Shown: positions 1,947-23,398, numbered from the stretch's first letter. The stretch is 25,800 bases of DNA from Candidatus Adiutrix sp. (GCA_031263565.1 JAISFR010000118.1:1-25800); one strand, 5' to 3'. Translations and numbers: made by a program. Notes: generated from the letters alone by a model not told the origin.

Positions 1947-1964
1947 GATTGGCGGCCTTAAAAT

Positions 1965-2238: not shown

Positions 2239-2270
2239 GTATCCACAATTGACGATTGAGGATATCGGCC

Positions 2271-3625: not shown

Positions 3626-3669
3626 GGCCAGGGCGCACCCGGCGCCTTAAAGGCGAAGGTAGGTGGGGC

Positions 3670-4371
3670 ATGATGGAATTTCTGGACAACTGCCTGTCGT
3701 TTCCCGTCAACATCTTCAGCGGGATGATGATCATCGCCGCCATTTACTGGCTGATCGCCTCCTTCGGCCTCTTGGACGTGGACAGCCTGGACCTGGATAT
3801 GGACGTGGGCGGCGACCTCGGCGGGGACGGGCCCGACGTCGGCCTCGGCGACGCGGGGCCGGCGGTGGCCGGCGTCTCCGGCCTGGAGGCCCTGACCAGT
3901 CTCCTGTTCCACCTCGGGCTCTACGGGGTGCCCATGACCCTGATTCTGTCCCTCATCACTCTGACCGGCTGGGTGATTACCTTCTGCGTGTTTGACCTGA
4001 CGCTGGGGCGCTTTCTGGCGCCCGGGCCGCTGCGCTATATCCTGGGCGTCCCGCTCTTCGCGGGGGCCTTCATCGCCGGCGCCCTGCTGACCTCGGTCAT
4101 CATCAGACCGCTGCGGCCGTTTTTTAAAAAAGAACCTTCAGTTACCGCCGCTTCAATCTGCGGGCGCGTGGTGCTGGTCCGTTCCACCCGGGTGACCGAC
4201 AGCTATGGCGAGGCGGTTTACGAAGGCGGCGGGACAAACATGCTCCTGGACGTCCGCCCGGCCCGCGAAGGCGCGGTTTTCAAACGCGGCGACAAAGCGG
4301 TGCTGCTGGATTACGATGCCGCCCGGCGTCTCTATACCATAATCAGTGAAGATGAATTTCGCGGGCGATAG
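3670..4371 (+). CDS. NfeD-like integral membrane protein (YqiJ/YuaF-like partner of flotillin) with a C-terminal OB-fold.
   Basis: Several predicted TM helices (IIAAIYWLIASFGLL; LILSLITLTGWVITFCVF; GVPLFAGAFIAGALLTSVII) with an acidic Gly/Asp-rich loop. C-terminal beta-rich segment GRVVLVRS...GEAVYEGGG...LLDYDAARRLYTI is typical of the NfeD OB-fold. Lies immediately upstream of an SPFH/flotillin gene, as in yqiJK and yuaF-floT. Confidence 0.65.
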   Translation: MMEFLDNCLSFPVNIFSGMMIIAAIYWLIASFGLLDVDSLDLDMDVGGDLGGDGPDVGLGDAGPAVAGVSGLEALTSLLFHLGLYGVPMTLILSLITLTGWVITFCVFDLTLGRFLAPGPLRYILGVPLFAGAFIAGALLTSVIIRPLRPFFKKEPSVTAASICGRVVLVRSTRVTDSYGEAVYEGGGTNMLLDVRPAREGAVFKRGDKAVLLDYDAARRLYTIISEDEFRGR

Positions 4372-4430
4372 GAATTCGTCGAGCGCCTTGACAAAGCCTT
4401 GGAAGGATATTTTAAGCAGGGGGACATCTT

Positions 4431-6338
4431 ATGTTCGGTCTCAGCAGTTCTATTCTGTTTCTGGTTGTGGTGGGCTTTATAGTCCTGACCGCCTTCGGCC
4501 TGGTCGGTCTGATCAAATCATTTTACATCAAGGTGCCCCAGGGGACGGCCCTCATTATCAACAATTTGCAGGCCACCCCCCAGGTCAGCTTCACCGGCGC
4601 CCTGGTTCTGCCGGTGATCCACAAAAAAGAATTCATGAAAATTTCGGTCCTGACCCTGGAAATCGACCGGCGCGGCAAAGACGGCCTCATCTGCAAGGAC
4701 AATCTGCGGGCCGACATTACCGTGGCCTTCTATCTGCGGGTCAATGAAACCGCCGACGACGTGCTGCAGGTGGCTAAAAGCATCGGGGCCGACCGGGCTT
4801 CCGATCCCACCGCCGTGGGCGTGCTGTTCAACGCCAAATTTTCCGAAGCCCTTAAAACAGCGGGCAAGCAGTTTGAACTGCACCGGCTCTTTGAAGAGCG
4901 CCTTCAGTTCCGGGAACGCATTCGCGAGGTCATCGGCAAGGACCTGAACGGTTACAGCCTGGAAGACGTGGCCATCGACTACCTGGAACAGACCTCGGTC
5001 ACCCACCTTGATCCGAACAACATCTTCGACTCGGAAGGCATCCGTAAAATCACCGAAACCACGGCCACCCAGAACGTCATTACCAACGAGGCCGAACGCA
5101 ACAAAGAACTGGCCATTCAGAAAAAGAACGTGGAAACCCGGGAAGCCAGCCTGGCCCTGGAACGTCAGCAGGCCGACGCTGAAGCCCGCCAGAAGCGGGA
5201 AATAGAAACCATCCGGGCCCGCGAGAAGGCGGAAACCCTCAAGGTGCAGGAAGAAGAGCGCTTAAAGGCCGAATACGCCCGCCTGCAGACCGAACAGGAA
5301 ATACAGGTTCGGGAGGAAAACCGGCACCGTGAAGTTGAAGTCGCGCAGCAGAACCGGGTGCGGGCGGTCCAGGTGGAAATGGAGCGGGTCACCCGGGCCA
5401 GGGACCTGGAAGTTGTGGCCCGCGAACGGGAAGTCGAATTGAGCCGCATCGACAAAGAGAAGGCCCTGGAAGAAGAGCGCAAGAACATCGCCAACGTCAT
5501 CCGCGAGCGGGTGGCGGTGGACAAGACCGTGGCCGTCGAGGAAGAGCGGATTAAAGATGTGCGGCTGGTGGCCGAGGCCGAGCGCCAGCGGCAGGTGGTC
5601 ATTATTGACGCCCAGGCCCAGGCCGGGGAAAAGCTGGTCAGCCAGGTGAAAGAGGCCGAGGCGGATAAGGAGCGAGCCCTGTTCAAGGCCGCTGAAATCA
5701 GCACTATGGCCCAGGCCGAACTGGAAGCGGCCACCAGGCAGTCCGAGGCGAAAAAGCGCCTGGCCGAAGGTCTTGAGGCCGAAGAAGCCGCCCTGGGGCT
5801 GGCCGAGGCCAGGGTGCGGCAGGCCAAGGCGGCGGCCGAGGAAAAAGAGGGGCTGGTCCAGGCCAGGGTCCTTGAGGAAAAACTTCTGGCCGAAGCTCGC
5901 GGCCAGGAACAGGTGGGGCTGGTCAAAGCCAGAACCGCCAGGGAATACGGCCTGGCGGAAGCCGACATCATTCGCGAACGCCTCAGAGGCGAGGCCGACG
6001 GGCTCACGGAAAAATTCAAAGCCATCGGCAGCCTGACCGAAGAGGCCCGGGCTCACGAGGAGTTCCGCATCCAATTGGAAAAGCACCTGGAAGCCGCTCT
6101 GGCCTCCATGGAAGCCAACAGGGAAATCGCCCGCGAGCAGGCCGACGTTCTGGCCGCGGCCCTGGCCAAGACCAGCATCGACATCGTCGGCGGCGACGGC
6201 GAGTTCTTCGACACTTTCTCCAAATCGCTCCGGGTGGGCAAGGCCATCAACGGCCTCCTGGGTAAAAGCCCGGCGGCCAACAGCCTGATGGAGGCTATCC
6301 TGTCCCGGGTCGGCCCGTCGGACGGCGACGGCCAATAA
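4431..6338 (+). CDS. Flotillin-like SPFH/band-7 protein (YqiK/FloT family) with a long Glu/Arg/Ala-rich coiled-coil region.
   Basis: N-terminal TM anchor (ILFLVVVGFIVLTAFGLVGLI). SPFH domain (YIKVPQGTALIINN...ISVLTLEIDRRGKDGLICKDNLRADITVAFYLRVN...). Then an ~300-aa EA/ER-rich coiled coil typical of flotillins. RBS agggggac before the ATG at 4431. Confidence 0.85.
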   Translation: MFGLSSSILFLVVVGFIVLTAFGLVGLIKSFYIKVPQGTALIINNLQATPQVSFTGALVLPVIHKKEFMKISVLTLEIDRRGKDGLICKDNLRADITVAFYLRVNETADDVLQVAKSIGADRASDPTAVGVLFNAKFSEALKTAGKQFELHRLFEERLQFRERIREVIGKDLNGYSLEDVAIDYLEQTSVTHLDPNNIFDSEGIRKITETTATQNVITNEAERNKELAIQKKNVETREASLALERQQADAEARQKREIETIRAREKAETLKVQEEERLKAEYARLQTEQEIQVREENRHREVEVAQQNRVRAVQVEMERVTRARDLEVVAREREVELSRIDKEKALEEERKNIANVIRERVAVDKTVAVEEERIKDVRLVAEAERQRQVVIIDAQAQAGEKLVSQVKEAEADKERALFKAAEISTMAQAELEAATRQSEAKKRLAEGLEAEEAALGLAEARVRQAKAAAEEKEGLVQARVLEEKLLAEARGQEQVGLVKARTAREYGLAEADIIRERLRGEADGLTEKFKAIGSLTEEARAHEEFRIQLEKHLEAALASMEANREIAREQADVLAAALAKTSIDIVGGDGEFFDTFSKSLRVGKAINGLLGKSPAANSLMEAILSRVGPSDGDGQ

Positions 6339-6350
6339 CGGGTGACGGCG

Positions 6351-9300
6351 ATGGCGGAAATTAAAGATGAAAAGCTTGAGGCTCTGGACGCGGCGGTAGC
6401 CGAGGGCGGGGCTTATGAAATCCTCCGCCGGCGCCTGTCGGACCTGGGCGGCCAACTGCGGGCGGCCGCCCAGGATCTCAACGAACGCCGGCTGGCCGAA
6501 TTCGGCAAGAGCGAGATGGACCTTGCCGGCCGGGTGCGCATCCGGACCGAGAACAACTGCATGGCCCGCGACATCGTCCAGGTCGGCGGCTTACTCCTGT
6601 TCGGCTACAACGTTTTCATCGGGCTGAAAAAAGAAACCCGGGTGGAAGACGTGTTTTCCCTCTATAAGCTGGAAGACCGGGGCGGCGACTATGAAGCCGT
6701 GCCGATACCCCTGGCCGACACTTTTCTGGCCGACCCGGTCTTCGTCCGCGATTTCACCGAACTCTACACCTATTACAAAGACGCCGGCCTTTTGCAGCTT
6801 TCGGTCTGGGACGGCAAGCTTCTGGCCAGCTTCAGGATAGGCCTCAAGGTTTCCGATGTGCGGGTTTTCCGCTGGTCTGTTTCGGCGGACGGGCGTAACC
6901 TAAGCTATATCGACAATCGCGGCGAGCGCGACATCAAGCTTCCGCCGGCCCATGATTTTGAATGGGTTCGCACCGGGCGGGAAAACGCCGTGGGCGGGCG
7001 GCACCCGCACGTCAATATTCTGGACACGGTTTTCGTCGAAACCGTGGGCGGCGATTTGACCGTCAAGATGGAAAACAATACCGAAAGCGGCCTGGGCATT
7101 TACCGCGAAGACGTGCTGGACAAAACCCAATCCCTTGATGACGGGCAGATCGAATACGCCAGGGTCGGCAGCCTGATTCTCCTGAAAATATTGCCCTACC
7201 GGGAAACCGTGTGGCGCTATCTCGTTTACAACAGCCTGACCCATGACGTCCGCCGCATCGACGCCATCGGCCAGGCCTGCCTCGAACTGCCGGAAGATCA
7301 CGGCATCATCTTTCCCGGCGGCTGTTATCTTCAGAACGGGGAGTGGAAGACTTTTGACCAGCCCATGAACGGCATGCTCTTCCGCCGCCAGCGCAAATCG
7401 CCCAACGGCGAGGATGTGCTTTACGTTTTCTATGATCCTGAAGCCGGCCGTCTGACTCTGTTCAATTACAACCTGATTGAGCGGGCCCTGGCTTCACCCA
7501 TCATGGGCGACGGTTACACTCTTCTGGAGGACGGCCGCATGATTCTCTTTGAGGATCAGGGCGACGAAGCCACCCGGATTCACCCGATGCAGATTTGGCG
7601 AACCCCTTTTTACACCGACGAGTACGCCGCCCTGACCAGGAGCCGCAACACCGTTCTGTCCCGCGTCGGCAACGCCGACCTGGTGCGCGGCATTTCCGAT
7701 TTGTACAATATTGTGAGGGAGGTTGAAGCGCCGAGGGTTTCTTCGGCCCTCTACAACAAGCTCAGCCAGGACGCCCGCCGCCTGTTCGACGCCTATTTCT
7801 GGATGAAGGATGAGGAAAACTTCAAAGTCGCCGCCGTTCTGCGGGAAATAGCCAGGACCGGCGAACTGGTCATCGATGAATATGAGAAGGTGGAAAGCAT
7901 CCGCAAGCAGGCCGAAAAAGCTCTGCGCGAGGCGGCCGCCGCCCAGAAGGAACTGTTCGGCAAACTGACGCCGGACGCCTGGGACAATATCCGCGAATTC
8001 TCCGACGGCCTGGAAAGCGTCCAACTGCAGCGCGGCCGGCTCATATCCCTGCGCGCTCTGCGCTATATTGATCTGGCCGGCATCGATCAATTGGAAGCGG
8101 AACTGAAAACGCGGGAAGATGAAGTCGCCCGCGGGGCGGCCGTTTTCCTGGCCGGGGACAGGGCTCTGGCGCCCTATACGGCCGCGCTTGTTCAGCTCGA
8201 CACGCAGACCGCCAGGGCGCCCAACGTGGCCGCTTTGGCCGCCGCCGGCGCGGAGCTGGAAAAAATAAGCGGCGACCTGGATGCCCTGTCCGCGCTCATG
8301 TCTTCCGTTCCCTTTGAAGACGCGACCTGGCAGACGAGGATTATTGAAGACATTTCCGAGGTCTATGCCCGGACCAATCAGGCCCGGGCCCGGCTGGCCG
8401 CGCGCCGCCGGGAACTCGGCGGGGCCGAGGACCAGGCCCGGTTCGGGGCCCGGTTCAAGCTTTTCAGCCAGACTATGGCCTCGGCCGTGACCCTGGCCAC
8501 CGACCCCGAGCGATGCGACGAAGAGCTGGCCCGGCTTCTTTTGCAGCTTGAGGAAATGGAAAGCCAGTTCGGGGACTATGAGGAATTTTCAGCCGATATC
8601 CTGCAAAAACGGGAAGAGTTGCTGGAAACTTTCGAATCGCGCAAGCAAACTCTTCTGGACGCCCGTCAGCGCCGGGCCCAGGGCCTGGCCGGCAGTGCCC
8701 GGCGCATCTTGGAAACCCTGCCGCGCCGCACCGCCCGTCTGGCCGCCATTGAGGAGATTAATGCCTTTTTCGCGGCCGACCCCATGGTGCTCAAGCTCCG
8801 GGACCTGACCGACAGCCTGCGCGCCCTGAAAGACAGCGTCAGGGCCGAGGACCTGGAAGCCCGGTTCAAGGCGGCCCGGGACCAGGCCCTGCGCGGTCTG
8901 CGCGACAAGACCGAACTTTACGAGGACGGCGGGGCCACCATCCGCCTCGGGCCGCGCCACCGCTTCAGCGTCAATACCCAGGAGCTTGACCTGACCGTTC
9001 TGCCCCAGGAAGGCGAACTGCGGCTTTCGTTAACCGGCACCGATTTTCAGGAGCCGGTGCGGGATGCCGGCCTGGAGGATATGCGTCAATTTTGGGGAAT
9101 GGTCATTGAATCGGAATCGGCGGACGTCAGTCGGGCCGAGTTCCTGGCTTATGAAATTCTGCAAGCCGCGCGCTCCGGGCGGGACGGCTTTGACTATGAA
9201 GAGATGCGGGCCATGTTGAGCCGGCCGGAAGAACTGGAGGCCAAGGTCAGAGCCTTTGCCGCGCCCCGCTATCGCGAGGGTTATGAAAAGGGCCTGCACG

Positions 9301-11612
9301 ACCGGGATGCTTTTTTGATTCTGCAGAATATTCTGCCCCTGATCGACAGCGCCGGCCTGCTCCGCTTTCCGCCGGCGGCCCGGGCGCTGGCCATGCTGTT
9401 CTGGCAAAGGGTCCGTCACGAGCCCGGGCCCTCGACCTGGATTGAGAGCGCCCGCGCCAGCCAGGCTGTCGGCCTTTTGTACCATCACGACGGCGGGCTT
9501 GAAACCCTGCGGGCGGAAATAGAAAAGAGCCTGATCTCCTTTCTGGGCGACAGCGGTTTCGAGCTCCAGCCCGACTGCCTGGCCCAGGCCTCGGAGTTTC
9601 TTTCCCTGACCCTGGCCCGGCAGCCGGAAGAATTCGTTTGCGGTAAATACGCGCGAACCCTGTATCGGCAACTGCGGGCCCAGTTGGAGGCCCGCCACCT
9701 CTGGAGCGGTTACGCCAATGTGCAGCGGGAACATCCTGAACGCCTGGCCTGGCGCTGGAAGATGATGACCGGCTGGCTGCGGGGCCTGGCCGCCCAGCCC
9801 GAATATGAGCCTCTGGCCGCTTATGTTGAGGAGGCCGCCGCCCTGGCCATTGCCGACAACAGCGGAGAGATGAATGTTCAGTTCAGCGAAACCGATTTGG
9901 CGGTGACCGTCGAAGGCCTGATGAGTTCTCATCCGCGGATAAAAGAGGGCCGCCTGACCCTGGCCATTGACGATTTTTTCAGCCGGCTGCGGCGCCACAA
10001 GCGTCAGATGCAGCCTGGTTATCACAGTTATCAGCAGCGGCGTCACGCCTTTCTGGAAAAAGAGCGCGACCGGCTGCGTCTGGACGACTTTAAGCCCCAG
10101 CCGCTGACCTCCTTTGTTCGCAACCGTTTGATCGACGAGGTTTATCTGCCGATCATCGGCGACAATCTGGCCAGGCAGATGGGGGCTTCGGGGGAGGCCC
10201 GCCGCAGCGACCTGATGGGTCTCCTGATGCTCATCTCCCCGCCGGGTTACGGCAAGACCACCCTCATGGAATATGTGGCCCACGCTTTGGGGTTGATCTT
10301 CATGAAGATCAACGGACCTTCCCTCGGCCGCGCGGTGCTGTCCCTGGATCCCGCCCAGGCCCCGGACGGGACGTCCGGACAGGAGTTGCGTAAACTTAAT
10401 CTGGCCCTGGAGATGGGCAACAACGTCATGCTTTATGTGGACGACATTCAGCACACCAACCCCGAGTTTCTGCAGAAATTTATTTCTCTGTGCGATGCGA
10501 CCCGCCGCATTGAAGGCGTCTGGAACGGGCGCGGCAAAACTTACGACCTGCGCGGCAAGAAGTTCTGCGTGGTCATGGCCGGCAACCCTTACACCGAGTC
10601 GGGCGAAGTTTTCAAAATTCCGGACATGCTGGCCAACCGGGCCGACGTCTATAATCTCGGCGAGGTGCTCGGCGGCCTGGAGGAGGCCTTTGCCCGGAGC
10701 TACATCGAAAACAGCCTGACCTCCAACCCGGTTCTGGCGCCTCTGGCCCAGCGGGATATGAAAGACCTCCATCACTTCCTGGAGCGGGCCCAGGGCAAGG
10801 CTTTCAGCGCCGGAGAACTGAGGTGCGACTACAGTGAAGCCGAGCAGACCGAGATCCCCGCGGTCTTAAGCCGCCTCCTGACTCTGCGGGATACGGTGAT
10901 GAAGGTCAACCGCCATTACATCGCCAGCGCCGCCCAGTCCGACAAATACCGCTCCGAGCCGCCCTTCAGGCTCCAGGGCAGTTACCGCAACATGAACAAG
11001 CTGGCCGGACAGGTTTCGGCGGTGATGAACGAGCGGGAACTGGAAGGCCTGCTGGACGACATGTACGCCGGCGAGGCCCAGCTCCTGACCGGTTTCGCCG
11101 AGGAGAACCTGTTGAAGCTGGCCGAGATAAGGGGCCGCCAGTCGCCGGAGCAGGCCGCCAGGTGGGCCGAGATCAAAAGGCAGTTCAATCGGGACAAGAC
11201 TTTCGGCGGGGACGGCGCCGAAGCCGGCGACCGGCTGGTGGCCCAGTTGGCCGATCTGGCCCACTATGTCAAAATTCTGGGTGAACGGAGCGGCGGCGGC
11301 TCAGACAAGCTGTCGGGGCAGCTGGCCAACCTGGTGGCGGCCGTGGCGGCCGTCAGCGGCGGCCGGAAAGTGGTCAAGATGTCGGACCTTATGGAGCAGG
11401 TCAACAGCGCCCGCAATAAATCAACCGTTATTCCCCATATTCAGCCGCTTCAAGTCCAGCCCGCTGTTTCAAAGCCGGCCGCTCCGCCTCAGGGAGGGCC
11501 GGCTGCGGCGGCCCGGGCCCGCACCGGGCCCGGCCAGGGGCATCAAGCGCCGCCGAACCCCCACGCGCCTCAGCCGCCTCGCCGACCGGCGCCGCCCAAA
11601 CCCAAGTCCTGA
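6351..11612 (+). CDS. Giant multidomain protein (~1753-1756 aa). Large N-terminal region of unknown function with mixed alpha/beta and coiled-coil segments. C-terminal AAA+ ATPase module of MoxR/AAA_5-like type. Pro-rich basic disordered C-terminal tail.
   Basis: Start is ATG at 6351 (or GTG at 6342), 4-13 nt after the flotillin stop, so translationally coupled. Walker A ISPPGYGKTTLMEY at about nt 10240-10265. Walker B-like MLYVDDIQHTNPEFLQKF, resembling MoxR DEINRAPPEVQ, at about 10430-10470. Followed by sensor-like VVMAGNPYTESGE and ANRADVYNLG. Tail ...PPQGGPAAAARARTGPGQGHQAPPNPHAPQPPRRPAPPKPKS. I recognise no match to a named family for the first ~1280 aa. Confidence 0.8.
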   Translation: MAEIKDEKLEALDAAVAEGGAYEILRRRLSDLGGQLRAAAQDLNERRLAEFGKSEMDLAGRVRIRTENNCMARDIVQVGGLLLFGYNVFIGLKKETRVEDVFSLYKLEDRGGDYEAVPIPLADTFLADPVFVRDFTELYTYYKDAGLLQLSVWDGKLLASFRIGLKVSDVRVFRWSVSADGRNLSYIDNRGERDIKLPPAHDFEWVRTGRENAVGGRHPHVNILDTVFVETVGGDLTVKMENNTESGLGIYREDVLDKTQSLDDGQIEYARVGSLILLKILPYRETVWRYLVYNSLTHDVRRIDAIGQACLELPEDHGIIFPGGCYLQNGEWKTFDQPMNGMLFRRQRKSPNGEDVLYVFYDPEAGRLTLFNYNLIERALASPIMGDGYTLLEDGRMILFEDQGDEATRIHPMQIWRTPFYTDEYAALTRSRNTVLSRVGNADLVRGISDLYNIVREVEAPRVSSALYNKLSQDARRLFDAYFWMKDEENFKVAAVLREIARTGELVIDEYEKVESIRKQAEKALREAAAAQKELFGKLTPDAWDNIREFSDGLESVQLQRGRLISLRALRYIDLAGIDQLEAELKTREDEVARGAAVFLAGDRALAPYTAALVQLDTQTARAPNVAALAAAGAELEKISGDLDALSALMSSVPFEDATWQTRIIEDISEVYARTNQARARLAARRRELGGAEDQARFGARFKLFSQTMASAVTLATDPERCDEELARLLLQLEEMESQFGDYEEFSADILQKREELLETFESRKQTLLDARQRRAQGLAGSARRILETLPRRTARLAAIEEINAFFAADPMVLKLRDLTDSLRALKDSVRAEDLEARFKAARDQALRGLRDKTELYEDGGATIRLGPRHRFSVNTQELDLTVLPQEGELRLSLTGTDFQEPVRDAGLEDMRQFWGMVIESESADVSRAEFLAYEILQAARSGRDGFDYEEMRAMLSRPEELEAKVRAFAAPRYREGYEKGLHDRDAFLILQNILPLIDSAGLLRFPPAARALAMLFWQRVRHEPGPSTWIESARASQAVGLLYHHDGGLETLRAEIEKSLISFLGDSGFELQPDCLAQASEFLSLTLARQPEEFVCGKYARTLYRQLRAQLEARHLWSGYANVQREHPERLAWRWKMMTGWLRGLAAQPEYEPLAAYVEEAAALAIADNSGEMNVQFSETDLAVTVEGLMSSHPRIKEGRLTLAIDDFFSRLRRHKRQMQPGYHSYQQRRHAFLEKERDRLRLDDFKPQPLTSFVRNRLIDEVYLPIIGDNLARQMGASGEARRSDLMGLLMLISPPGYGKTTLMEYVAHALGLIFMKINGPSLGRAVLSLDPAQAPDGTSGQELRKLNLALEMGNNVMLYVDDIQHTNPEFLQKFISLCDATRRIEGVWNGRGKTYDLRGKKFCVVMAGNPYTESGEVFKIPDMLANRADVYNLGEVLGGLEEAFARSYIENSLTSNPVLAPLAQRDMKDLHHFLERAQGKAFSAGELRCDYSEAEQTEIPAVLSRLLTLRDTVMKVNRHYIASAAQSDKYRSEPPFRLQGSYRNMNKLAGQVSAVMNERELEGLLDDMYAGEAQLLTGFAEENLLKLAEIRGRQSPEQAARWAEIKRQFNRDKTFGGDGAEAGDRLVAQLADLAHYVKILGERSGGGSDKLSGQLANLVAAVAAVSGGRKVVKMSDLMEQVNSARNKSTVIPHIQPLQVQPAVSKPAAPPQGGPAAAARARTGPGQGHQAPPNPHAPQPPRRPAPPKPKS

Positions 11613-11614
11613 TG

Positions 11615-11650
11615 TTGACAAAGCCCCCGGCGTTGACAAAACCCCCGGCG
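11615..11650 (+). repeat. Tandem 18-bp direct repeat TTGACAAAGCCCCCGGCG / TTGACAAAACCCCCGGCG, immediately after the giant gene's stop.
   Basis: Seen directly: 17 of 18 positions identical, head-to-tail, each copy starting with a -35-like TTGACA. The same TTGACAAAGCC 11-mer also occurs at 4388-4398, between the NfeD and flotillin genes. Confidence 0.5.
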
Positions 11651-11654
11651 GCTC

Positions 11655-11683
11655 TTGGCGGGCGGGCTTTTCTGTGCTATAAT
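11655..11683 (+). promoter_or_regulatory. Putative sigma70 promoter with extended -10 (TTGGCG-N17-TGcTATAAT) for the downstream cell-wall cluster.
   Basis: Perfect TATAAT at 11678-11683, preceded by TGc (extended -10). TTGGCG lies 17 nt upstream. About 60 nt upstream of the lipoprotein ATG at 11744. Confidence 0.45.
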
Positions 11684-11743: not shown

Positions 11744-12358
11744 ATGCCGCCCTTCAGAAAAATGCTGCTGCTCGGCCTGGCGGCCGCTCTGGCGCTGGGC
11801 CTGGGCGCCTGCGGGCGCGGCCCTTTCTCTCCGGAGGCCCGGCGTCAGTCCCGGGAACTGGATCAATACCTCAAAGCGCTTCAGGCTGATCTGCTCACTG
11901 ACGACACTTTTGAATGGAATACTCTTTCTTCGGCCCTGACCGTCAAAGCCCTGGCCTATTCCGGCCCGGTGCGCCAGGCCGCCGAACAGCGCTTCAGGGG
12001 CGACCCCGCGTTTCAGGAAGAAAGCTCCCGCTGGGCTCAGGCCCCCGGCCGCCGTCATCCGCCGCTGGTCATCCTGATGGGGCTCTTCGCCCCGGACCTT
12101 CAGGAGCAAGACGTCGCCCCGGCCGGGCGTTTCCGCCCCCGCCTCCGGACCGCCGACGGACGGAGCCTCAAGCCTCTGGAGATTAAGAGCTATGGCCGCG
12201 GCTCGGTTTTTGTCCGTGACCATTTCCCGGTTTTCAACCCCTGGGAGGCGGTTTATCTGCTGCGCTTCCCCTCACCCGGGGCCGGCCCTGAGGGGCGGCT
12301 CGATTTCCTCCTGGAATGGCCGGGCGGCGTTCAGACCATGGCTATCAATGACCGCTGA
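11744..12358 (+). CDS. Putative lipoprotein of unknown function
   Basis: ATG at 11744 with a GGGAGAG RBS 7 nt upstream. Signal peptide MPPFRKMLLLGLAAALALGLGAC with lipobox LGAC. The longer ORF-track start at 11612 merely reads through the tandem DNA repeat (LTKPPALTKPPA) and is rejected. Confidence 0.6.
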   Translation: MPPFRKMLLLGLAAALALGLGACGRGPFSPEARRQSRELDQYLKALQADLLTDDTFEWNTLSSALTVKALAYSGPVRQAAEQRFRGDPAFQEESSRWAQAPGRRHPPLVILMGLFAPDLQEQDVAPAGRFRPRLRTADGRSLKPLEIKSYGRGSVFVRDHFPVFNPWEAVYLLRFPSPGAGPEGRLDFLLEWPGGVQTMAINDR

Positions 12359-12434
12359 TTTCTTTCCAGGCCCGCCGGACATCGCGCCTTTTAAACGGAC
12401 CGCCGCTGCCGCGGCCGACCCGGGGGCTTATTAA

Positions 12435-14216
12435 GTGATCCGGCGGATTCAAATCGCCGTTCTGGCGCTGATCTGCCTGACGGCCGGCCGGGCCCCGGCC
12501 GCCCCGGGCGACATGCTGCCCGACGCCATCCTCTATCCCGGCGACCGGCCCGGCCATATCCTGGTGGCGGACAAGGCTGAGCAGATGCTCTACCTCTACA
12601 GCCATGACGGCCAGGGCCGGGTGCGCCTGGAACGGATCATGCCCTGTTCCACCGGCGAAATAAAAGGCGACAAAATGATTCAGGGGGACAGAAAGACCCC
12701 CAACGGTTTCTATATTTTCAATGAAAAGCTGCTGCCCCGCGAGCTTTCGCCGATTTACGGCGCTTTGGCCTATCCCACCGACTACCCCAATTTCTGGGAC
12801 AGGAAAATGGGGCGCGGCGGATACGGCATCTGGATCCACGGCATCAACAAACCCCTGGCGGATTACGATTCCAACGGCTGCATCGAACTGGAAAATGCCG
12901 ACATCGCCCGGATGGAGGAATTGATCCGGCTCTACGACACCCCGCTGATCACCTACGAGACGATGACCCAGGCTCCGGTGGAGCAGTTGGAAGCCGAGGG
13001 GCGTCTTCTGCGGGACTTTCTGGAAACCTGGCGCCGCGCCTGGGCCGGGAAGGACCACGCCGCCTATCGCCGCCTTTATGACCCTGAATTCGTCAATTCC
13101 GACGGCCGCTCCTTTTCCGGCTGGATGACCCACAAGGAGAACGTGGCCCGGAATTATCAGACCATCACCGTGGAAATCAAGGATTTGAAGATCTACCGCC
13201 ACCGGGACGTGCTGCTGGCCGTCTTCGAGCAGGACTATCGGGGCGATCAGCGATTCACCTCCATAGGCCTTAAGCGCCTGTATCTGAAGAAAGAGGACGG
13301 CGCCTATAAAATCATCGGCGAAGAATTTCGCCCGCTGCCCGAACCGGAAACCCGCAAATGGCTGACTGCCGCCGAAAAGCGCCGCGCTTTGGAGACCCCG
13401 CCGCTGACCGTGGCCAAAGCCCAGACTCCGGCGGCCGGATCCGAGGTCCCCGGAACTTCGGAGCAAGCCCGGGCTGTGGCCGATCAGGCCGGGGCGGCCG
13501 CCGGGCTCCAGGCCGAAGCCGCCCGGGCGGAAGCCGAAGCCCGGGCCGCCCAAGCCCGGGCGGCCGCCGAGGTCCAGGCCCAAGCCGCCCAAGTTCAGGC
13601 GGCCGCCGAGGCCCAGGCCCAAGCCCGGGCGGAAGCGGAAGCCCAAGCCGCCCAAGTTCAGGCGGCAGCCGAGGCCCAGGCCCAAGCCCAGGCGGAAGCG
13701 GAAGCCGAAGCCCAAGCCGCCCAAGCCCGGGCGGAAGCCGAAGCCGAAGCCCAGGCCCGGGCGGCAGCCGAAGCGGCCGGCCGGGACCAGGCCCGGCTCG
13801 AGGCCGAAACCAGAGCCCTGGAGGCCGCCCGAATTCGAGCCGAAGCCCGGGCCGCCGAGGAAGCCCGGATAAAACAGGAACTGACCACCCTGGTCAGAAA
13901 CTGGGCCGCGGCCTGGAGCCGCCGGGACGCCGGGGCCTACCTGGCTTTTTATCATCCTGATTTCTATTTTGACGACAAAGACCTGGACCTGGCCGGCTTC
14001 ATCAACTACCGCCGGCCTCTGATCGAAGAGGCCTCGGTCATTGAAGTCAAGGTCTCCAATTTCGACGTCCGGCTGGACGGCGAAACGGTCCGGGTCATTT
14101 TCCGTCAGGACTACCGCTCTGACCATTACCGTGACCGGGGGCGCAAGACCCTGACCTTGAAAAGGGACGCGGGCCTCTGGAAAATCGTGGCCGAGACCTG
14201 GAAGGCCCTGAGATGA
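12435..14216 (+). CDS. Secreted L,D-transpeptidase-fold (YkuD) protein with an Ala/Glu/Gln-rich repeat linker and two NTF2-like (SnoaL/DUF4440-like) domains. Csd6/Pgp2-like candidate L,D-carboxypeptidase or L,D-transpeptidase.
   Basis: GTG start with signal peptide MIRRIQIAVLALICLTAGRAPAAP. YkuD catalytic region ...GYGIWIHGINKPLADYDSNGCIELENADI (conserved His and Cys). Two copies of an NTF2-like module (LRDFLETWRRAWAGKDHAAYRRLYDPEF... and LTTLVRNWAAAWSRRDAGAYLAFYHPDF...), separated by an (EAQA)n low-complexity linker. Confidence 0.75.
   Translation: MIRRIQIAVLALICLTAGRAPAAPGDMLPDAILYPGDRPGHILVADKAEQMLYLYSHDGQGRVRLERIMPCSTGEIKGDKMIQGDRKTPNGFYIFNEKLLPRELSPIYGALAYPTDYPNFWDRKMGRGGYGIWIHGINKPLADYDSNGCIELENADIARMEELIRLYDTPLITYETMTQAPVEQLEAEGRLLRDFLETWRRAWAGKDHAAYRRLYDPEFVNSDGRSFSGWMTHKENVARNYQTITVEIKDLKIYRHRDVLLAVFEQDYRGDQRFTSIGLKRLYLKKEDGAYKIIGEEFRPLPEPETRKWLTAAEKRRALETPPLTVAKAQTPAAGSEVPGTSEQARAVADQAGAAAGLQAEAARAEAEARAAQARAAAEVQAQAAQVQAAAEAQAQARAEAEAQAAQVQAAAEAQAQAQAEAEAEAQAAQARAEAEAEAQARAAAEAAGRDQARLEAETRALEAARIRAEARAAEEARIKQELTTLVRNWAAAWSRRDAGAYLAFYHPDFYFDDKDLDLAGFINYRRPLIEEASVIEVKVSNFDVRLDGETVRVIFRQDYRSDHYRDRGRKTLTLKRDAGLWKIVAETWKALR
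13490..13800 (+). repeat. In-frame tandem GCC-GAA/GCC-CAA-type repeats, with a period of about 61 bp plus shorter 6-bp units, encoding an (E/Q)A-repeat linker.
   Basis: Seen directly: the near-identical block gcccaagccgcccaagttcaggcggc(c/a)gccgaggcccaggcccaagccc occurs at ~13580-13627 and ~13641-13688. Surrounding sequence is gccgaagcc/gcccaggcc repeats encoding AEAQAQAEAEA. Confidence 0.6.
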
Positions 14217-14305
14217 ACCCCAACGGCTGAATGATGAGCCCCTCGCGCGGAAAAGCGCCCGCCAAGGGACGCTGGAATATCTTGATCATCCGCCCCAGGG
14301 GCGAG

Positions 14306-15079
14306 ATGATTGATTTTTCCGTCTCGCCGGTGGCCTTGCTGGCCTTCTGGCTCTTCGTCCTGATCCTGGCGGCCGTCTCGGTCGTGACGGTCGGCCGTTA
14401 TTTCAGCCTCTACCTGGAACACCGGGATCTGGAAGGCGTTCATCGGGAAGCCGCCCTGGAGTTGAGCCGCCTGCGCCGTCAATTTGAATATCAGTCGGCG
14501 GTGGCTGACGATTATCTGGAGATCATGAACGCCCTGGGCCGCATCGAGGCCCAGGACGGGCCGGAGACGGCCGAAGCGTCGGAAGCCGCCCCGGAGAATG
14601 GCGAGTTTATAGCTTCCGGAGCGCTGGAGGCTCTGGCCGCCCAGGTCGGCTCTGAAGGCGGACGGCCGCCGGCGGAGCCCGCCGACGGCCGCCTGGCCGC
14701 CTGGGCGGATTTCTTTCCCGGGCCGGCCTTTCCGCCGGAGCAGGAACTGGAGATTGAGAATCTCAGGATCAACGGCGGGCACTTCCGGTTTCAACTGCTC
14801 AACGAAGGCGCCGGCCGGCAGGCGCAGGGGCGGCTGCTTTTGCTTTTCGCGGTGGAGGAGGCCGATGGCCAGATCAGCCTGAGGCCCTACCCGGATTTTG
14901 ACCCCCAAAGCCCCCGGCCGGATTTTGAGGCCGGGCCGGCTTACAATATCCGTTCATCCAAGCCGGTTTCCGGTCAGTTGGAACTGAACGGGGGCGACCG
15001 GGTGCTGGAGATGATGGTCATCGCCCGGTCCCGCGCCGGCAACGTGGTCCTGAAAAAGAAGATCAGCCCCGATTCCTGA
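14306..15079 (+). CDS. Membrane-anchored hypothetical protein: one N-terminal TM helix, a coiled-coil segment, and a C-terminal beta-rich domain.
   Basis: ATG at 14306 preceded by an AGGGG RBS. The alternative ATG at 14231 lacks an RBS. TM VSPVALLAFWLFVLILAAVSVVTV. Located between the LDT-fold and M14-like genes. Confidence 0.5.
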   Translation: MIDFSVSPVALLAFWLFVLILAAVSVVTVGRYFSLYLEHRDLEGVHREAALELSRLRRQFEYQSAVADDYLEIMNALGRIEAQDGPETAEASEAAPENGEFIASGALEALAAQVGSEGGRPPAEPADGRLAAWADFFPGPAFPPEQELEIENLRINGGHFRFQLLNEGAGRQAQGRLLLLFAVEEADGQISLRPYPDFDPQSPRPDFEAGPAYNIRSSKPVSGQLELNGGDRVLEMMVIARSRAGNVVLKKKISPDS

Positions 15080-15124
15080 GCCGCCCCCCGGGTCGGCGGC
15101 CTCCCCTGGAAAGGTTCGATTTTA

Positions 15125-17050
15125 ATGTTCGTCAAAAAAATATATATCGGGGCCGTCGCGGCCTTTTTGCTTCTGGCCGGGGCCGGCCCGGCCGCCGCCC
15201 AGGGTCCGGAGCGGGGCCCTGACCGGCAGCATCTGGTTTACGGGGCCGGTACGCCCCAGGAACTTCAGGTCTATAAAATTTTCGGCCGCCAGCCCGGGCC
15301 CACGGTCCTGATCATCGGCGGCATTCAGGGCGATGAGGCCGGCGGCTTTATGAGCGCCGACCTCTATGTCGATCTGGCTTTGAAAAAAGGCAATCTGATC
15401 GTCGTGCCCCGGGCCAATTTCAAAAGCATCATCCAGTACCACCGGGGGCCGGACGGGGACATGAACCGGAAATTCCGGGGCGACCTCGACCGCGACCCGG
15501 AGCGCCCCATAGTGGAGGCGCTCAAGGCCCTGATGGCCGAAAGCGATCTGGTGCTGAACCTCCATGACGGCTCCGGTTATTATCGGCACATCTGGGAAAG
15601 CGACCTGGCCAACCCCAACCGCTACGGCCAATGCATCATCGCCGACGCCGACGTCTATACCCATAAGCCCAGCGGGCGCATCATCCCCCTGAAAGACTAC
15701 GCCGAAGACGTGGTGGAGAGGATCAACCGGCAGATCGACGATCCCCAGCAGAAGTTCCGCTTCTCCAACCACAACACCGAGGCCCCGGACAGCCGGCATA
15801 AGGAGCAGAAGGGCAGCGTCTCTTATTACGCCCTGACCGAATTGGGCATCCCGGCCTTCGGGGTGGAGACCTCCAAGCAGTTGCCCAGCCTGGAACTGAA
15901 GATTTATCAGCACAACCTGGCGGTCAACGCCTTTCTGGAAGTCTTCGGGCTGGAACTGGAACAGCCCCGGATACGTCTGGAAGCGCCTTATCTGGCCTAT
16001 CTTTTGATAGCGGTCAATAACGGAACGCCTCTGGCCGTGGCCGACGGCCAGACTCTGATGGTGGCCCCGGGCGCGGCCGTGGAAGTCCTGGACGTGGTCT
16101 CCAATTTTGACCGGGGGCTGTCGGCGGACGTCAAAGGGCTGGGCGGCTTCAATGATCTGGGCGTTCCGCTGCGGATCGAGCAGCCCACCAGCATTGAAGT
16201 GCAGAAAGACCAGCGGCGCATCGGGCGGATCAGCCTGGCTCTTCTGCCCGCGGGTCAGGAGGATCAGAGCCCGCGCCTGACCGGCGAAAACCGTCTCCGA
16301 CTGCCCCGGGCCGAGGCGGTGGCGGCGGCCGGGCCGGAAGCCGCCGGCCGCTTGGCGGTTCTGGATTCGCCGCGCAATGAAATAAGGCAGGCCATCGAGC
16401 TGACCCCCGGCCCCCGGCCCCCGGCCGGCGCGCCCCCGGCCCCGGCCCGGGTGACCGGTTTTCTGATCGAGGTCGACGGGTGGCCGGTGGAACTGGCTCC
16501 GGGTCAGAAGCTGGAGGTCATGAGCGGCAGCCTGATCAAAATGGTGGATTTAAAAAGCGACGGTCCCTTGCCCGAAAAAACGGTCATGAATCTCAAAGGC
16601 TTCATGCCCAAGAGCAAGCTTTATAAAAACGACGGCGAAGATCGGGGCTTCACCGCCGATACCGGCCGGGACCTGATGCCGGCCTTTTCGGTCGGGCAGA
16701 GGGGCCGCGACTATGAGATCAACGCCGAGGTCGGGCCGGAGGTCAGGGCTTCCTGTTCCATACGCCTGACGCCGCCCAAACTGGTCTCGGCGACCATTGA
16801 GATCGACGGGCGGAGGCAGACCCTTACGCCTGGCGGGCGCTTCGGCATTCCGCCCGGCGCCGAGGTGACCGTGCTGGCCGTGGAACTGGCCGACGGCCGG
16901 GAGCTCGGCAACCCCCGCTTCACCCTGGGCGGCAAGCCTTTCCCCGCGGAACTGCCCCAGACCTTGAAAATGCCGGGCTTCGGGGTCAACCTGGCCGTTT
17001 TCAACGGCGAAGTCCTGGCCGGCAAAGTTTTGTGGGCCTTAAAGCCCTAG
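15125..17050 (+). CDS. Secreted M14-like zinc carboxypeptidase (AstE/AspA superfamily fold; candidate Csd4/Pgp1-type peptidoglycan peptide carboxypeptidase) with three C-terminal beta-rich internal repeats.
   Basis: Signal peptide MFVKKIYIGAVAAFLLLAGAGPAAAQ. Catalytic-domain motif VLIIGGIQGDEAGG, with Q-x-x-E in place of the usual H-x-x-E zinc ligands as reported for Helicobacter Csd4, and a downstream His in VLNLHDGSGYY. C-terminal half has three ~35-aa repeats (YLLIAVNNGTPLAVADGQTLMVAPGAAVEVLDV / GFLIEVDGWPVELAPGQKLEVMSGSLIKMVDL / SATIEIDGRRQTLTPGGRFGIPPGAEVTVLAVEL). Confidence 0.65.
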   Translation: MFVKKIYIGAVAAFLLLAGAGPAAAQGPERGPDRQHLVYGAGTPQELQVYKIFGRQPGPTVLIIGGIQGDEAGGFMSADLYVDLALKKGNLIVVPRANFKSIIQYHRGPDGDMNRKFRGDLDRDPERPIVEALKALMAESDLVLNLHDGSGYYRHIWESDLANPNRYGQCIIADADVYTHKPSGRIIPLKDYAEDVVERINRQIDDPQQKFRFSNHNTEAPDSRHKEQKGSVSYYALTELGIPAFGVETSKQLPSLELKIYQHNLAVNAFLEVFGLELEQPRIRLEAPYLAYLLIAVNNGTPLAVADGQTLMVAPGAAVEVLDVVSNFDRGLSADVKGLGGFNDLGVPLRIEQPTSIEVQKDQRRIGRISLALLPAGQEDQSPRLTGENRLRLPRAEAVAAAGPEAAGRLAVLDSPRNEIRQAIELTPGPRPPAGAPPAPARVTGFLIEVDGWPVELAPGQKLEVMSGSLIKMVDLKSDGPLPEKTVMNLKGFMPKSKLYKNDGEDRGFTADTGRDLMPAFSVGQRGRDYEINAEVGPEVRASCSIRLTPPKLVSATIEIDGRRQTLTPGGRFGIPPGAEVTVLAVELADGRELGNPRFTLGGKPFPAELPQTLKMPGFGVNLAVFNGEVLAGKVLWALKP

Positions 17051-17100: not shown

Positions 17101-17154
17101 GGTCTACGCTTTGGTTGATTGCTTCGCAATCAGCCTTTCAATTGAGGTTCCCCG

Positions 17155-18523: not shown

Positions 18524-19448
18524 ATGTCGGGTTTATCAAAAATTATTATTTTGTCCCTGGCCGTGATTATCGCCTCGGCCGCTTATCTCGGCCTTGGCCG
18601 CGGCGGCCTGACCCCGACCGGCGAGGCGGTCGATGAGGAAATGATTTCCGTAATCCCGGCGGCCGGGCCAGCCCTGGTGGAAGAATCCGCCGCCTGGTTA
18701 CGGTTCGTGCATGGCGGCAAAATGGGCTTCACCAATACTCAGAGTGAGGTGGTGATCCCGGCCGCATTCGATTACGCCCTGGATTTTTCCGCCAAGGGCC
18801 TGGCGGCGGTGAAGGTTAACGGCCAATGGGGATACATCAACAGCAAAGGGGAGATGGCTGTCCCGGCCCGGTTTGATTTCGTCTGGCGCTTTGCCGACAA
18901 CGGCCTGGCCGCCGTCAAAGTGGGCGGCCGATGGGGTTTCATCAATCAATCGGCTCGGCGAATTGACGGTCAAGGCCGACTATGACGATGCGCTTAGTTT
19001 TGACGGCAACGGCCTGGCCCCGGTGGCGCTTGACGGCCGATGGGGTTTCATCAACGCCTGGGGGGACTTGGTTATTCCGGCTGAGTTTGACGAGGTGTGG
19101 AATTTTAACGATAACGGTCTGGCCAAAATCAAACTTAATGGCCAATATGGTTTTATCAACCTTCGAGGCGAGTTGGCCATTCCCGCCCGCTTTTATGAAG
19201 CCAGCGATTTCGCCGCCAATGGTTTGGCCGCGGTTATGGTTGAAAAAGGCGTAAAAGGAGGAGCCTGGGATGAAAGAGACGCGAAGTGGGGATATATTGA
19301 CAGCCAAGGGAAAATGGTCATCAAGGGCAAATATATTTCGGCCACCGGCTTTGGCGATGACGGTTTGGCGGTCGTTTGTTTTTGGGGACCATGGGATGAA
19401 GATTACCGCTACATTAACAGCCAAGGTAAACTTTTTTATATAAATTAG
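18524..19448 (+). pseudogene. WG-repeat (WG_beta_rep) secreted or membrane-anchored protein, interrupted by a +4 frameshift near 18950-18957. Pseudogene or sequencing error.
   Basis: Two overlapping ORFs (18524-18985 in frame 2, 18873-19448 in frame 0) both carry the same ~38-aa repeats (GLAAVKVNGQWGYINSKGEMAVPARFD...). Removing the 4 nt gctc from caatcg[gctc]ggcgaattgacg restores ...RWGFINQSGELTVKADYDD..., which fits the repeat consensus WGfIN..GelaiPa.fD. N-terminal signal/anchor MSGLSKIIILSLAVIIASAAYL. Confidence 0.55.
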
Positions 19449-22822: not shown

Positions 22823-23398
22823 TCATTTGCCGGCTGAAGCCGCGGTCGCGGTTTCCTGCTTTTGGGCGTCGGCCAGTTGCCGGGCTCTGGGGCCGGTGAT
22901 GGCCCTGACCGTCACTTTGGCCACCCCGGATTTGAGCAGGCCCATTTCCGCGGCGGCGGCCCGGGACAGGTCGATGATCCGGCCTTTGACGAAGGGGCCC
23001 CGGTCGTTGATGCGCAGGGCCAGAACCTTGTTGGTTTCCAGGTTCCTGACTTCCACCCAGGTGTGGAGGGGCAGGGTCTTGTGGGCCGCCGTGACGCGGT
23101 TCATGTCGTAAATTTCGCCGCTGGCGGTTTGGCGGCCGTGGAAGGGCTCCCCGTACCAGGAGGCCAGACCTTTTTCCCGGAAGCCTTCGGCCGAGGCCAG
23201 GATATGATAGCGCTGGCCGTTGATGACGTAAGATTTGCCGCTGCGGTTCGTCCCGAAGAAGCCGCAGCCGCCGGTCAGCAGAACCAGCCCCAGAATGAGC
23301 AATATTTTGGCATAGAAAATGCTTTCAGATAAGTCGATTTTTAGCGAGAGAACTTGGGAGGTTTTTTCGGCGTTATGATTCGCGGGTTCGTTCAGCAT
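22823..23398 (-). CDS. rlpA: Septal ring lytic transglycosylase RlpA family lipoprotein (DPBB domain)
   Basis: Minus-strand ATG at 23398 with an AGGAG RBS 6 nt upstream. Hydrophobic segment plus lipobox-like ILLILGLVLLTGGCG. Conserved RlpA DPBB block ASWYGEPFHGRQTASGEIYDMNRVTAAHKTLPLHTWVEVRNLETNKVLALRINDRGPFVKGRIIDLSRAAAAEMG. The ORF-track extension up to 23662 is rejected because it is the antisense of the dacB signal-peptide repeat. Confidence 0.75.
   Translation of the reverse strand: MLNEPANHNAEKTSQVLSLKIDLSESIFYAKILLILGLVLLTGGCGFFGTNRSGKSYVINGQRYHILASAEGFREKGLASWYGEPFHGRQTASGEIYDMNRVTAAHKTLPLHTWVEVRNLETNKVLALRINDRGPFVKGRIIDLSRAAAAEMGLLKSGVAKVTVRAITGPRARQLADAQKQETATAASAGK

Follow-up and report, generated by a model that had tools for sequence, protein, structure and literature searches.

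A putative operon for stepwise stem-peptide trimming, with an unannotated bitopic membrane protein between its two enzymes, in a Candidatus Adiutrix genome

The sequence analysed in this work is a 25.8-kb contig from a metagenome-assembled genome (MAG) of Candidatus Adiutrix sp., a termite-gut deltaproteobacterium; the contig at its full length of 25,800 nt is referred to below as the window. Four plus-strand open reading frames (ORFs) lie head to tail at 11744-17050, separated by gaps of 76, 14 and 45 nt, and we propose that they form a membrane-scaffolded operon that trims peptidoglycan tetrapeptides to tripeptides and these to dipeptides, in the service of localised wall remodelling and probably of cell shape. 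To this composite reading we assign a probability of roughly 0.6, while the enzymatic identities taken alone are considered very likely. The four genes encode a predicted lipoprotein, a secreted YkuD enzyme of the LD-carboxypeptidase type, a bitopic inner-membrane protein that we call X, and a secreted Peptidase_M99 enzyme of the Csd4/Pgp1 (DL-carboxypeptidase) type, and all four products can be assigned to the envelope because they carry signal peptides, a lipobox or a transmembrane (TM) helix (Table 1). A preliminary description, made by a model from the sequence alone, had already placed the two enzyme ORFs at these coordinates within 11744-17050, accompanied by a lipoprotein (the lipobox ORF at 11744) and a TM/coiled-coil protein (the bitopic product of 14231-15079), and these assignments were borne out.

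The model for such a pathway comes from a few curved and helical bacteria. Pgp2, Csd6 and Bd1075 take the terminal D-alanine (D-Ala) off tetrapeptides, Pgp1 and Csd4 then remove meso-diaminopimelic acid (mDAP) from the resulting tripeptide, and Pgp1 depends on Pgp2 activity for its tripeptide substrate (PMC3961634). Both trimming steps are needed for helical shape in Campylobacter jejuni and Helicobacter pylori (PMC3310797, PMC3310789, PMC3961634). In Bdellovibrio bacteriovorus, the LD-carboxypeptidase Bd1075 generates vibrioid curvature and is directed by its NTF2 domain to the convex face of the cell; the study that characterised it mentions no operon partner, and reports that in an over-complemented strain tripeptides were partly converted to dipeptides (PMC8938487).

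The assignment of the last gene product to the second of these steps is supported by several lines of evidence. Peptidase_M99 (PF17033) matches the whole catalytic domain of the 641-aa protein with 147 bits (E 9.7e-43, cut-off 27), and all 71 homologues aligned with it match the same family. Among PDB sequences it is matched best by 4wck and 4q6m, both structures of Csd4 (E 1.5e-35), followed by an aspartoacylase-family protein at 1e-4, and Foldseek also ranks Csd4 first, at E 6e-26 versus 2e-9 for the next fold family. The metal ligands Q68 and E71 (GIQGDE) and H147 (LHDGSG) correspond to Csd4 Q46, E49 and H128, the general base E248 to E222, and R107, N114 and R115 to R86, N93 and R94, the roles of the Csd4 residues as metal ligands, general base and mDAP or scissile-bond contacts being those described for the H. 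pylori enzyme (PMC4220969). The mapped catalytic and substrate residues are invariant in the 71 homologues, Q68 nearly so, and N145 stands in place of Csd4 H126. The Csd4/Pgp1-like identity and the Q-x-x-E motif put forward in the preliminary description are thereby confirmed. As an observation on the wider family, 13 of 109 close homologues (e.g. P0047, P0100, P0113 and P0115) have His for Gln as first metal ligand (GIHGDE); QxxE has been called strictly conserved among Csd4 homologues (PMC4220969).

The name given in GenBank to an identical protein (P0001), succinylglutamate desuccinylase/aspartoacylase family protein, would make of this ORF a deacylase unrelated to the cell wall. Such a reading can draw on the match to AstE_AspA_cat (PF24827), which reaches 44.5 bits over aa 57-150, and on the Foldseek matches to AstE and EutE at about 1e-9. 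Against this, the M99 match extends over the whole catalytic domain, Csd4 is the better match by at least 16 orders of magnitude in the fold comparison and 30 in the sequence comparison, and the protein has QxxE and the residues that bind mDAP, together with a signal peptide and extra domains like those of Csd4. The gene, moreover, shares its operon with an LD-carboxypeptidase gene, and some of its orthologues are called M14/M99 family metallopeptidase by the Prokaryotic Genome Annotation Pipeline (PGAP). Profile and fold comparisons effectively refute the deacylase assignment, and the outcome that the preliminary description had singled out as contrary to its own proposal (membership of the AstE/AspA family, with H-x-x-E and no similarity to Csd4) was examined and does not hold.

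The 641-aa protein resembles Csd4 and Pgp1 also in being secreted and in carrying C-terminal beta domains, and differs from Csd4 (~438 aa) in having three related domains of this kind and a disordered linker. In the AlphaFold model (predicted local distance difference test, pLDDT, 90) these domains comprise aa 283-386 (D2), 440-551 (D3) and 552-641 (D4), and the linker (aa 406-437) lies between D2 and D3. Profile alignment with hhalign relates D3 to D4 with a probability of 94% and D2 to D3 with 82%, that of D2 and D4 being only 19.5%, and indicates that the three are probably repeats of one module. Csd4 itself consists of a carboxypeptidase domain, a central beta-barrel and a C-terminal Ig-like domain (PMC4220969); since it thus already has two C-terminal domains, the three extra beta domains of the preliminary description are indeed three in number, but only a single one is truly additional. 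Pfam M99_C gives weak matches in 8 of the 71 relatives (in P0055 at aa 439-510, E 1.4e-5), by which D3 corresponds weakly to the Ig-like domain of Csd4; M99_m matches none of them. The Foldseek alignment covers the whole of Csd4, yet with a root-mean-square deviation of 25 Å, because the domain orientations differ.

For the first trimming step, the 593-aa product of the second gene is the evident candidate. In addition to its YkuD domain, two stretches (aa 193-297 and ~484-585) match Cds6_C NTF2-like (PF24125, E 1.3e-37), which upholds the combination of a YkuD fold with NTF2-like domains reported in the preliminary description. Its closest relatives of known structure are proven LD-carboxypeptidases: Bd1075 (PDB 7O21, PMC8938487; E 4e-46 over aa 24-307) ranks ahead of Pgp2 (6xj6, E 6e-32) and Csd6 (4xzz, E 6e-31). 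The triad H135-G136-C149 aligns with H160, G161 and C176 of Csd6 and with H141, A142 and C156 of Bd1075. Among the Csd6 residues described as essential (E110, Y133, H155 and W158; PMC4599014), Y133 and W158 have their equivalents in Y108 and W133, whereas E110 is replaced by Q83 and H155 by Y130, two positions that also vary in Pgp2 or Bd1075. The catalytic domain aligns with gaps of only 1-3 residues to Bd1075 and 1-2 residues to Csd6, and because the alignment is near-gapless the protein presumably retains the long active-site loops that are said to set LD-carboxypeptidases apart from LD-transpeptidases (PMC4599014).

These features bear directly on the possibility that the YkuD protein works instead as a genuine LD-transpeptidase, or cleaves lipoprotein links as a DpaA-like amidase would, in which case there would be no sequential pathway. 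The fold and the H-G-C triad are common to LD-transpeptidases, a weak NCBIfam match to LdtF/DpaA/YafK is obtained (E 8e-7, far below the cut-off), and the changes at Csd6 E110 and H155 could be taken in the same sense. The best full-length matches, however, are to three LD-carboxypeptidases and include their family-specific NTF2 domain, the near-gapless alignment implies that the loops are probably kept, the equivalents of Y133 and W158 are present, and tight operon coupling to a tripeptide-specific M99 enzyme suits a carboxypeptidase. We therefore consider a transpeptidase or amidase very improbable.

The LD-carboxypeptidase-type protein resembles Bd1075 more than Csd6 in its overall layout. 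A YkuD domain is followed by an NTF2 domain with a Bd1075-type C-terminal extension, in which Phe occupies the position of W303, and the pocket Tyr equivalent to Y274 is kept in both NTF2 copies (FEQDYRGD in NTF2a, FRQDYRSD in NTF2b); in Bd1075, Y274 and W303 have a role in convex-face targeting (PMC8938487). The N-terminal dimerisation domain of Csd6 is absent, the alignment beginning at residue 79 of the Csd6 chain and residue 42 of the query, which therefore leaves only ~20 residues after the signal peptide. Bd1075, a monomer, lacks this domain as well, and both proteins are periplasmic. The likeness to Csd6 and Pgp2 lies in the triad, the Y133/W158 equivalents, the Cds6_C domain and the predicted supply of the tripeptide substrate of the M99 enzyme, and the differences from Csd6 in the missing dimerisation domain, the changed E110 and H155 positions and the second NTF2 domain. 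With respect to Bd1075, the distinguishing traits are this additional NTF2 domain on a linker of ~170 residues, the Phe in place of W303 and an operon shared with X and M99.

The two NTF2 domains are paralogues (27% identity, E 3e-15), and NTF2b can also be aligned with the NTF2 domain of Pgp2 (i-E 4e-6). The linker between them is rich in Ala, Glu and Gln and gives a weak TolA-like match; its composition suggests a helical spacer. The doubling itself was regarded in the preliminary description as an architectural novelty. The second copy is there, but at least 44 of the 57 related loci share it, and it must for this reason be viewed as a feature of the clade and no peculiarity of this organism. 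What is specific to the Adiutrix group is the long linker, for the sequence between NTF2a and NTF2b measures 640-1093 nt only in L005, L007, L008 and L013 and 1-340 nt elsewhere.

Protein X, encoded between the two enzymes, has no match in Pfam, NCBIfam or PDB sequence searches. Iterated searches with hidden Markov models (HMMs) nonetheless unite 57 of 59 inter-gene ORFs into one family, and in a profile search of 1.84 billion representatives this family comprises 1,080 clusters (50% identity) at E <=1e-3 and 750 at E <=1e-10. Its alignments share the motif basic-(W/F)T(I/V)LL(I/V)-G-x-x-G-K-(V/I)-x-S-F-x-(V/I)-S, which takes the form KGRWNILIIRPRGEMIDFSVS in the window and directly precedes the TM helix; the predicted model of X is without the N-terminal motif residues. 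The start annotated in GenBank (14306, giving the 257-aa P0121) cuts away half of KGRWNILIIRPRGEMIDFSVS, and the ORF that begins at 14231, 15 nt past the LD-carboxypeptidase stop, retains the motif like the homologues P0122-P0129. The 14306 start is preceded by a better Shine-Dalgarno sequence (AGGGG) than that at 14231. Some variation is seen among other members of the family. In P0181 (399 aa) a LysM domain (E 5e-11), which binds peptidoglycan, is inserted after the TM/coiled-coil part and ahead of the beta-sandwich, and in several members of 470-540 aa the beta domain seems to occur twice. Among ten long members checked against Pfam, one carries LysM; the other nine have no significant domain, with two matches below threshold at E ~1e-3, and appear to have doubled the beta domain.

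In its topology X recalls Csd5 of Helicobacter: a short cytoplasmic N-terminus, a single TM helix, a coiled coil and a globular periplasmic C-terminal domain. The cytoplasmic tail of Csd5 binds the bactofilin CcmA, the protein being said to be unique to Helicobacter (PMC9507126), and an interaction between Csd5 and Csd4 has been reported (PMC4220969). The Csd5-like character ascribed to X in the preliminary description holds for this topology and goes no further, for Csd5 ends in a peptidoglycan-binding SH3 domain and X in an Ig-like beta-sandwich, no SH3 domain is found in X and no sequence likeness to Csd5 is detected. X is thus an analogue of Csd5 at most. A comparable layout is that of LmdC (Hyphomonas neptunium, Rhodospirillum rubrum), which is likewise bitopic: a conserved beta-hairpin on the cytoplasmic side comes just before its TM helix, a periplasmic coiled coil follows, and its gene neighbours that of a bactofilin (PMC10945521). 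Bactofilin/M23 (LmdC) and bactofilin/Csd5 are established shape modules that dock by a cytoplasmic N-terminal tail beside the TM helix (PMC10945521, PMC9507126). In X a TM helix and a coiled coil likewise follow a conserved cytoplasmic motif, but a Pfam search finds no M23 domain in it, and the carboxypeptidases that it would recruit are encoded by separate genes.

Comparative analysis places these genes in a conserved cassette. For the M99 protein, a scan of one genome per species yielded no fewer than 399 relatives. The best 80 of these belong mostly to the Desulfobacterota (Desulfarculia, Desulfobacterales, Syntrophales), Desulfocarbo indianensis and a Desulfosudis oleivorans MAG among them, and in a few cases to MAGs labelled Gemmatimonadota, Latescibacterota, Acidobacteriota, Nitrospirae or Glassbacteria. 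Among the 60 loci with at least 2.7 kb of sequence upstream of M99, the order LD-carboxypeptidase, X, M99 is kept in 49, across the Desulfobacterota and in a few Gemmatimonadota, Latescibacterota and Acidobacteriota MAGs; X alone is found in two (L045 and L066, which have X and M99 without the LD-carboxypeptidase), the LD-carboxypeptidase alone in four and neither gene in five. To our knowledge, the LD-carboxypeptidase and M99 genes are unlinked in H. pylori and C. jejuni, where they carry separate locus tags in the published work, and the clustering seen in the window sets it apart from both species. The complete Smac51 genome reproduces the arrangement of the window, with a 212-aa protein in the position of the lipoprotein, an LD-carboxypeptidase with two Cds6_C stretches, a 307-aa protein, M99 and MtaB. 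The lipoprotein, which has no match in Pfam, NCBIfam or PDB searches, is less widely shared: a tblastn search of the related loci finds homologues 5' of the LD-carboxypeptidase gene in L007, L008, L011 and L013 only, all of them close relatives. Desulfovibrio-type M99 genes (L082, L002, L012) have neither an LD-carboxypeptidase nor an X gene upstream, and in L082 (positions 1-9944, a Desulfovibrio sp. MAG) M99 ends a flagellar cluster of flhA, flhF, an flhG-like gene, fliA, a response regulator gene and fliL, a nucleotidyltransferase gene preceding M99.

The cassette is frequently attached to bactofilin genes. In 30 of the 74 related loci that have downstream sequence, M99 has a bactofilin gene (PF04519, E ~1e-20) in its vicinity; in most of the 30 this gene comes directly 3' of M99, at distances of -37 to +54 nt, and often overlaps its stop codon. 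In two loci the association also takes in an M23 peptidase of the LmdC-like kind (Pfam M23, E 6e-33). L066 (7435-11716) has the order M23 peptidase, bactofilin, bactofilin, X, M99, and L041 (9983-13084) the order M99, M23 peptidase, bactofilin; both M23 proteins begin with (F/S)PIT(V/I)MVIPH...K...(L/I)PS, followed by a TM helix. The presence of an M23 peptidase gene and of M99 cassette genes around the same bactofilin gene or genes recalls the LmdC-bactofilin module.

Taken as a whole, the evidence is consistent with the following sequence of events. The secreted YkuD enzyme would trim the terminal D-Ala of tetrapeptides, as Bd1075, Csd6 and Pgp2 do, and the secreted M99 enzyme would take mDAP off the resulting tripeptide, as Csd4 and Pgp1 do, leaving dipeptides that cannot be cross-linked. 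The site of trimming would most likely be set by the two NTF2 domains, joined by their long linker, and by the M99 protein's three beta domains, through their binding to peptidoglycan or to partner proteins. X would act as a scaffold that keeps the periplasmic enzymes in defined positions, with its strand-turn-strand tail docking onto a positional cue in the cytoplasm, which in many relatives may be a bactofilin. Where cross-linkable peptides are lost locally, wall growth would then be biased, with curvature or some other localised feature of shape as the result. The link to shape is strengthened by the bactofilin genes, joined twice by an LmdC-like M23 gene, that are attached to the cassette in relatives.

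A number of observations weigh against this proposal, in addition to the substitutions at the E110 and H155 positions of Csd6 noted above. The contig is without a bactofilin gene (a tblastn search of its 25.8 kb with 32 bactofilins gave a best E of 0.17), and both here and in the Adiutrix/Desulfarculia relatives it is mtaB that follows M99, at the position that bactofilin genes occupy elsewhere; a role in shape is for this MAG a matter of inference. The periplasmic domain of X is a generic beta-sandwich for which no informative structural neighbour was found. The N-terminus of X bears a visual likeness only to the N-termini of the LmdC-like M23 proteins, of which two, from L066 and L041, were compared, and the match of an HMM of the X N-terminus to the L066 protein is not significant (E 0.99). 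Finally, enzymes of the Pgp2 type are present in many non-curved bacteria, and a rod stays straight when only Pgp1 and Pgp2 are expressed (PMC3961634).

Several of these points could be accommodated if the operon served housekeeping maturation or turnover of peptidoglycan, with trimming spread over the whole sacculus, no role in shape and X merely anchoring or regulating the enzymes. Possible purposes include a reduction of tetrapeptide donors for LD-transpeptidation or lipoprotein attachment, recycling and, in a gut symbiont, a reduced release of immunostimulatory mDAP-tripeptide. The lack of a bactofilin gene from the window and from the closest relatives agrees with this explanation, as do the wide distribution of Pgp2 homologues in non-curved bacteria and the altered Nod1 stimulation that follows loss of Pgp2 (PMC3961634). 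The cassette, too, occurs in many lineages whose morphology is unknown or diverse, and a PBP4-type Peptidase_S13 gene 6 kb downstream fits general stem-peptide processing. On the other hand, all characterised members of both enzyme families are shape determinants, and homologues of Csd4 and Pgp1 have been reported mainly from curved or helical species (PMC3310797, PMC3310789). Bactofilin genes adjoin the cassette in 30 of 74 relatives and LmdC-like M23 genes in two, and uniform trimming would require neither a dedicated and conserved membrane scaffold nor multiple domains of the targeting type. We judge a purely housekeeping function to be rather unlikely, and retain localised trimming as the preferred interpretation. 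The control of cell shape claimed in the preliminary description is thus made plausible by the bactofilin and M23 linkage in relatives, and with no such gene on the contig it stays inferential in this organism.

The broader proposition that X defines a large family of so far unannotated bitopic adaptors, coupling a bactofilin scaffold through their N-terminal tail to two periplasmic stem-peptide carboxypeptidases, is advanced more tentatively, as a possibility that the present evidence leaves short of even odds. How periplasmic trimming enzymes become positioned on a single side of the cell is an open question in Helicobacter, Campylobacter and Bdellovibrio, and the authors of the Bd1075 study know of no mechanism that would direct a protein to only one of the lateral walls (PMC8938487). 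In these model organisms separate loci encode the LD-carboxypeptidase, the DL-carboxypeptidase and the bactofilin system, and Csd5, the adaptor, is specific to its genus. A single co-directional cassette found across hundreds of genomes therefore names X as a candidate link between cytoskeleton and trimming enzymes, and cultivable carriers exist, among them Desulfosudis/Desulfococcus oleovorans Hxd3 (L054, where a bactofilin gene accompanies the cassette), Desulfocarbo indianensis (L071) and strain Smac51 (L081). If the adaptor role of X were true, the cassette would amount to a shapesome complete within a single operon, common across the Desulfobacterota and found in several other phyla, and it would be the third independent wiring of bactofilins to wall hydrolases, after Csd5/Csd7-CcmA and LmdC-BacA.

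The occurrence of these enzymes beyond the Epsilonproteobacteria, presented as new in the preliminary description, is not so, since deltaproteobacterial cases were reported in 2012, 2014 and 2022. Csd4 (Sycuro et al. 2012) and Pgp1 (Frirdich et al. 2012) were described as conserved in select curved or helical Delta- and Epsilonproteobacteria (PMC3310797, PMC3310789); pgp2 was found through its co-occurrence and neighbourhood with pgp1, including in the deltaproteobacterium Desulfococcus oleovorans (Frirdich et al. 2014, PMC3961634), which carries the same cassette as locus L054; and Bd1075 was characterised in 2022 as an LD-carboxypeptidase from outside the epsilon group (PMC8938487). Taken as enzymes, the two are ordinary representatives of families already known; what appears to be new is the organisation of the operon together with the proposed X adaptor. 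In the literature searched we found no account of the X family, of the attachment of bactofilin genes with or without M23, of the clade-wide double NTF2 or of the triple beta-repeat tail, although such absence is no proof of novelty. For annotation, the analysis would replace succinylglutamate desuccinylase by M99 DL-carboxypeptidase and move the start of the X gene to 14231, and it predicts a dipeptide-rich peptidoglycan in bacteria of the Adiutrix group.

Table 1. Features of the putative trimming operon in the window, with examples of bactofilin genes from related loci
Feature	Position	Strand	Remarks
Direct repeat, TTGACAAA[G/A]CCCCCGGCG	~11614-11651		two copies, 5' of promoter-like site
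Sigma-70-like promoter match, TTGGCG / 17 nt spacer / TATAAT with TG	11655..11683	+	consensus match only
Predicted lipoprotein, 204 aa (MPPFRKMLLLGLAAALALGLGAC...)	11744..12358	+	lipobox LGLGAC; first gene of putative operon
Secreted LD-carboxypeptidase-type YkuD enzyme, 593 aa	12435..14216	+	signal peptide, catalytic domain, NTF2a, linker, NTF2b
YkuD catalytic domain, aa 42-165	12558..12929	+	Pfam YkuD E 1.5e-15
NTF2-like domain a, aa 193-297, Bd1075-like	13011..13325	+	Pfam Cds6_C, PDB alignments
Imperfect tandem DNA repeats encoding linker (aa ~305-478)	13488..13774	+	periods 33-102, 66-90% matches
NTF2-like domain b, aa 484-593	13884..14213	+	second Cds6_C stretch, DUF4440, SnoaL_3
Protein X, 282 aa, bitopic inner-membrane protein	14231..15079	+	unannotated family
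X cytoplasmic basic strand-turn-strand motif, aa 13-32	14267-14326	+	
X TM helix, aa 33-55	14327-14395	+	
X periplasmic beta-sandwich, aa ~173-278	14747-15064	+	preceded by coiled coil and disordered linker
Secreted Peptidase_M99 (Csd4/Pgp1-type DL-carboxypeptidase), 641 aa	15125..17050	+	signal peptide, catalytic domain, three beta domains
M99 catalytic domain, aa 54-279	15284..15961	+	HMMER alignment to 4q6m and 4wck
Three C-terminal beta domains D2-D4	15971..17047	+	AlphaFold model, hhalign
Terminator-like hairpin with T-rich tail	17113..17135	+	10-bp stem with 5 GC pairs; consensus match only
Bactofilin genes, examples	L016:11799-12140, L019:11867-12247, L054:11809-12207		related loci

The bounds of the operon are suggested by a promoter-like and a terminator-like site that enclose exactly the four genes, both being consensus matches only. 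The former has 10 of 12 matches and lies ~60 nt 5' of the lipoprotein start, in a region where three such sites were found against 1.1 expected; the latter falls between the M99 stop and the mtaB start. The direct repeat upstream contains a TTGACA hexamer in each copy and falls within the last codons of the preceding gene; a regulator could bind there, or the repeat could provide an alternative -35 element. Minus-strand ORFs at 12345-14126, 14126-14908 and 15122-15913 were rejected as shadow ORFs of a 63% G+C sequence and given no weight, because their cross-locus clusters only mirror the sense genes. The G+C content is even across the window, at ~0.6-0.67, with no sign of a foreign island.

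The operon is flanked upstream by a gene for a 1756-aa DUF3686/AAA protein and downstream by that for MtaB. The former closes a co-directional plus-strand run (2256-11612) that encodes DUF2170, PspA/IM30, two family-less proteins and the 1756-aa ATPase itself (DUF3686, DUF7902 and AAA); the run stops exactly at the start of the lipoprotein region and may constitute a membrane-stress module. An autotransporter with PATR repeats and an autotransporter beta-domain is encoded at the start of the contig (54-1946, plus strand). The Peptidase_S13 gene mentioned above (23354-24745, plus strand; E 4.5e-47) lies outside the operon and encodes a D-Ala-D-Ala carboxypeptidase/endopeptidase of the PBP4/DacB type, which would supply the tetrapeptide substrate of the LD-carboxypeptidase. 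Two overlapping plus-strand ORFs in different frames (18524-18985 and 18873-19448) both encode WG-containing beta-propeller repeats (PF14903) and may be one frameshifted gene or an assembly error.

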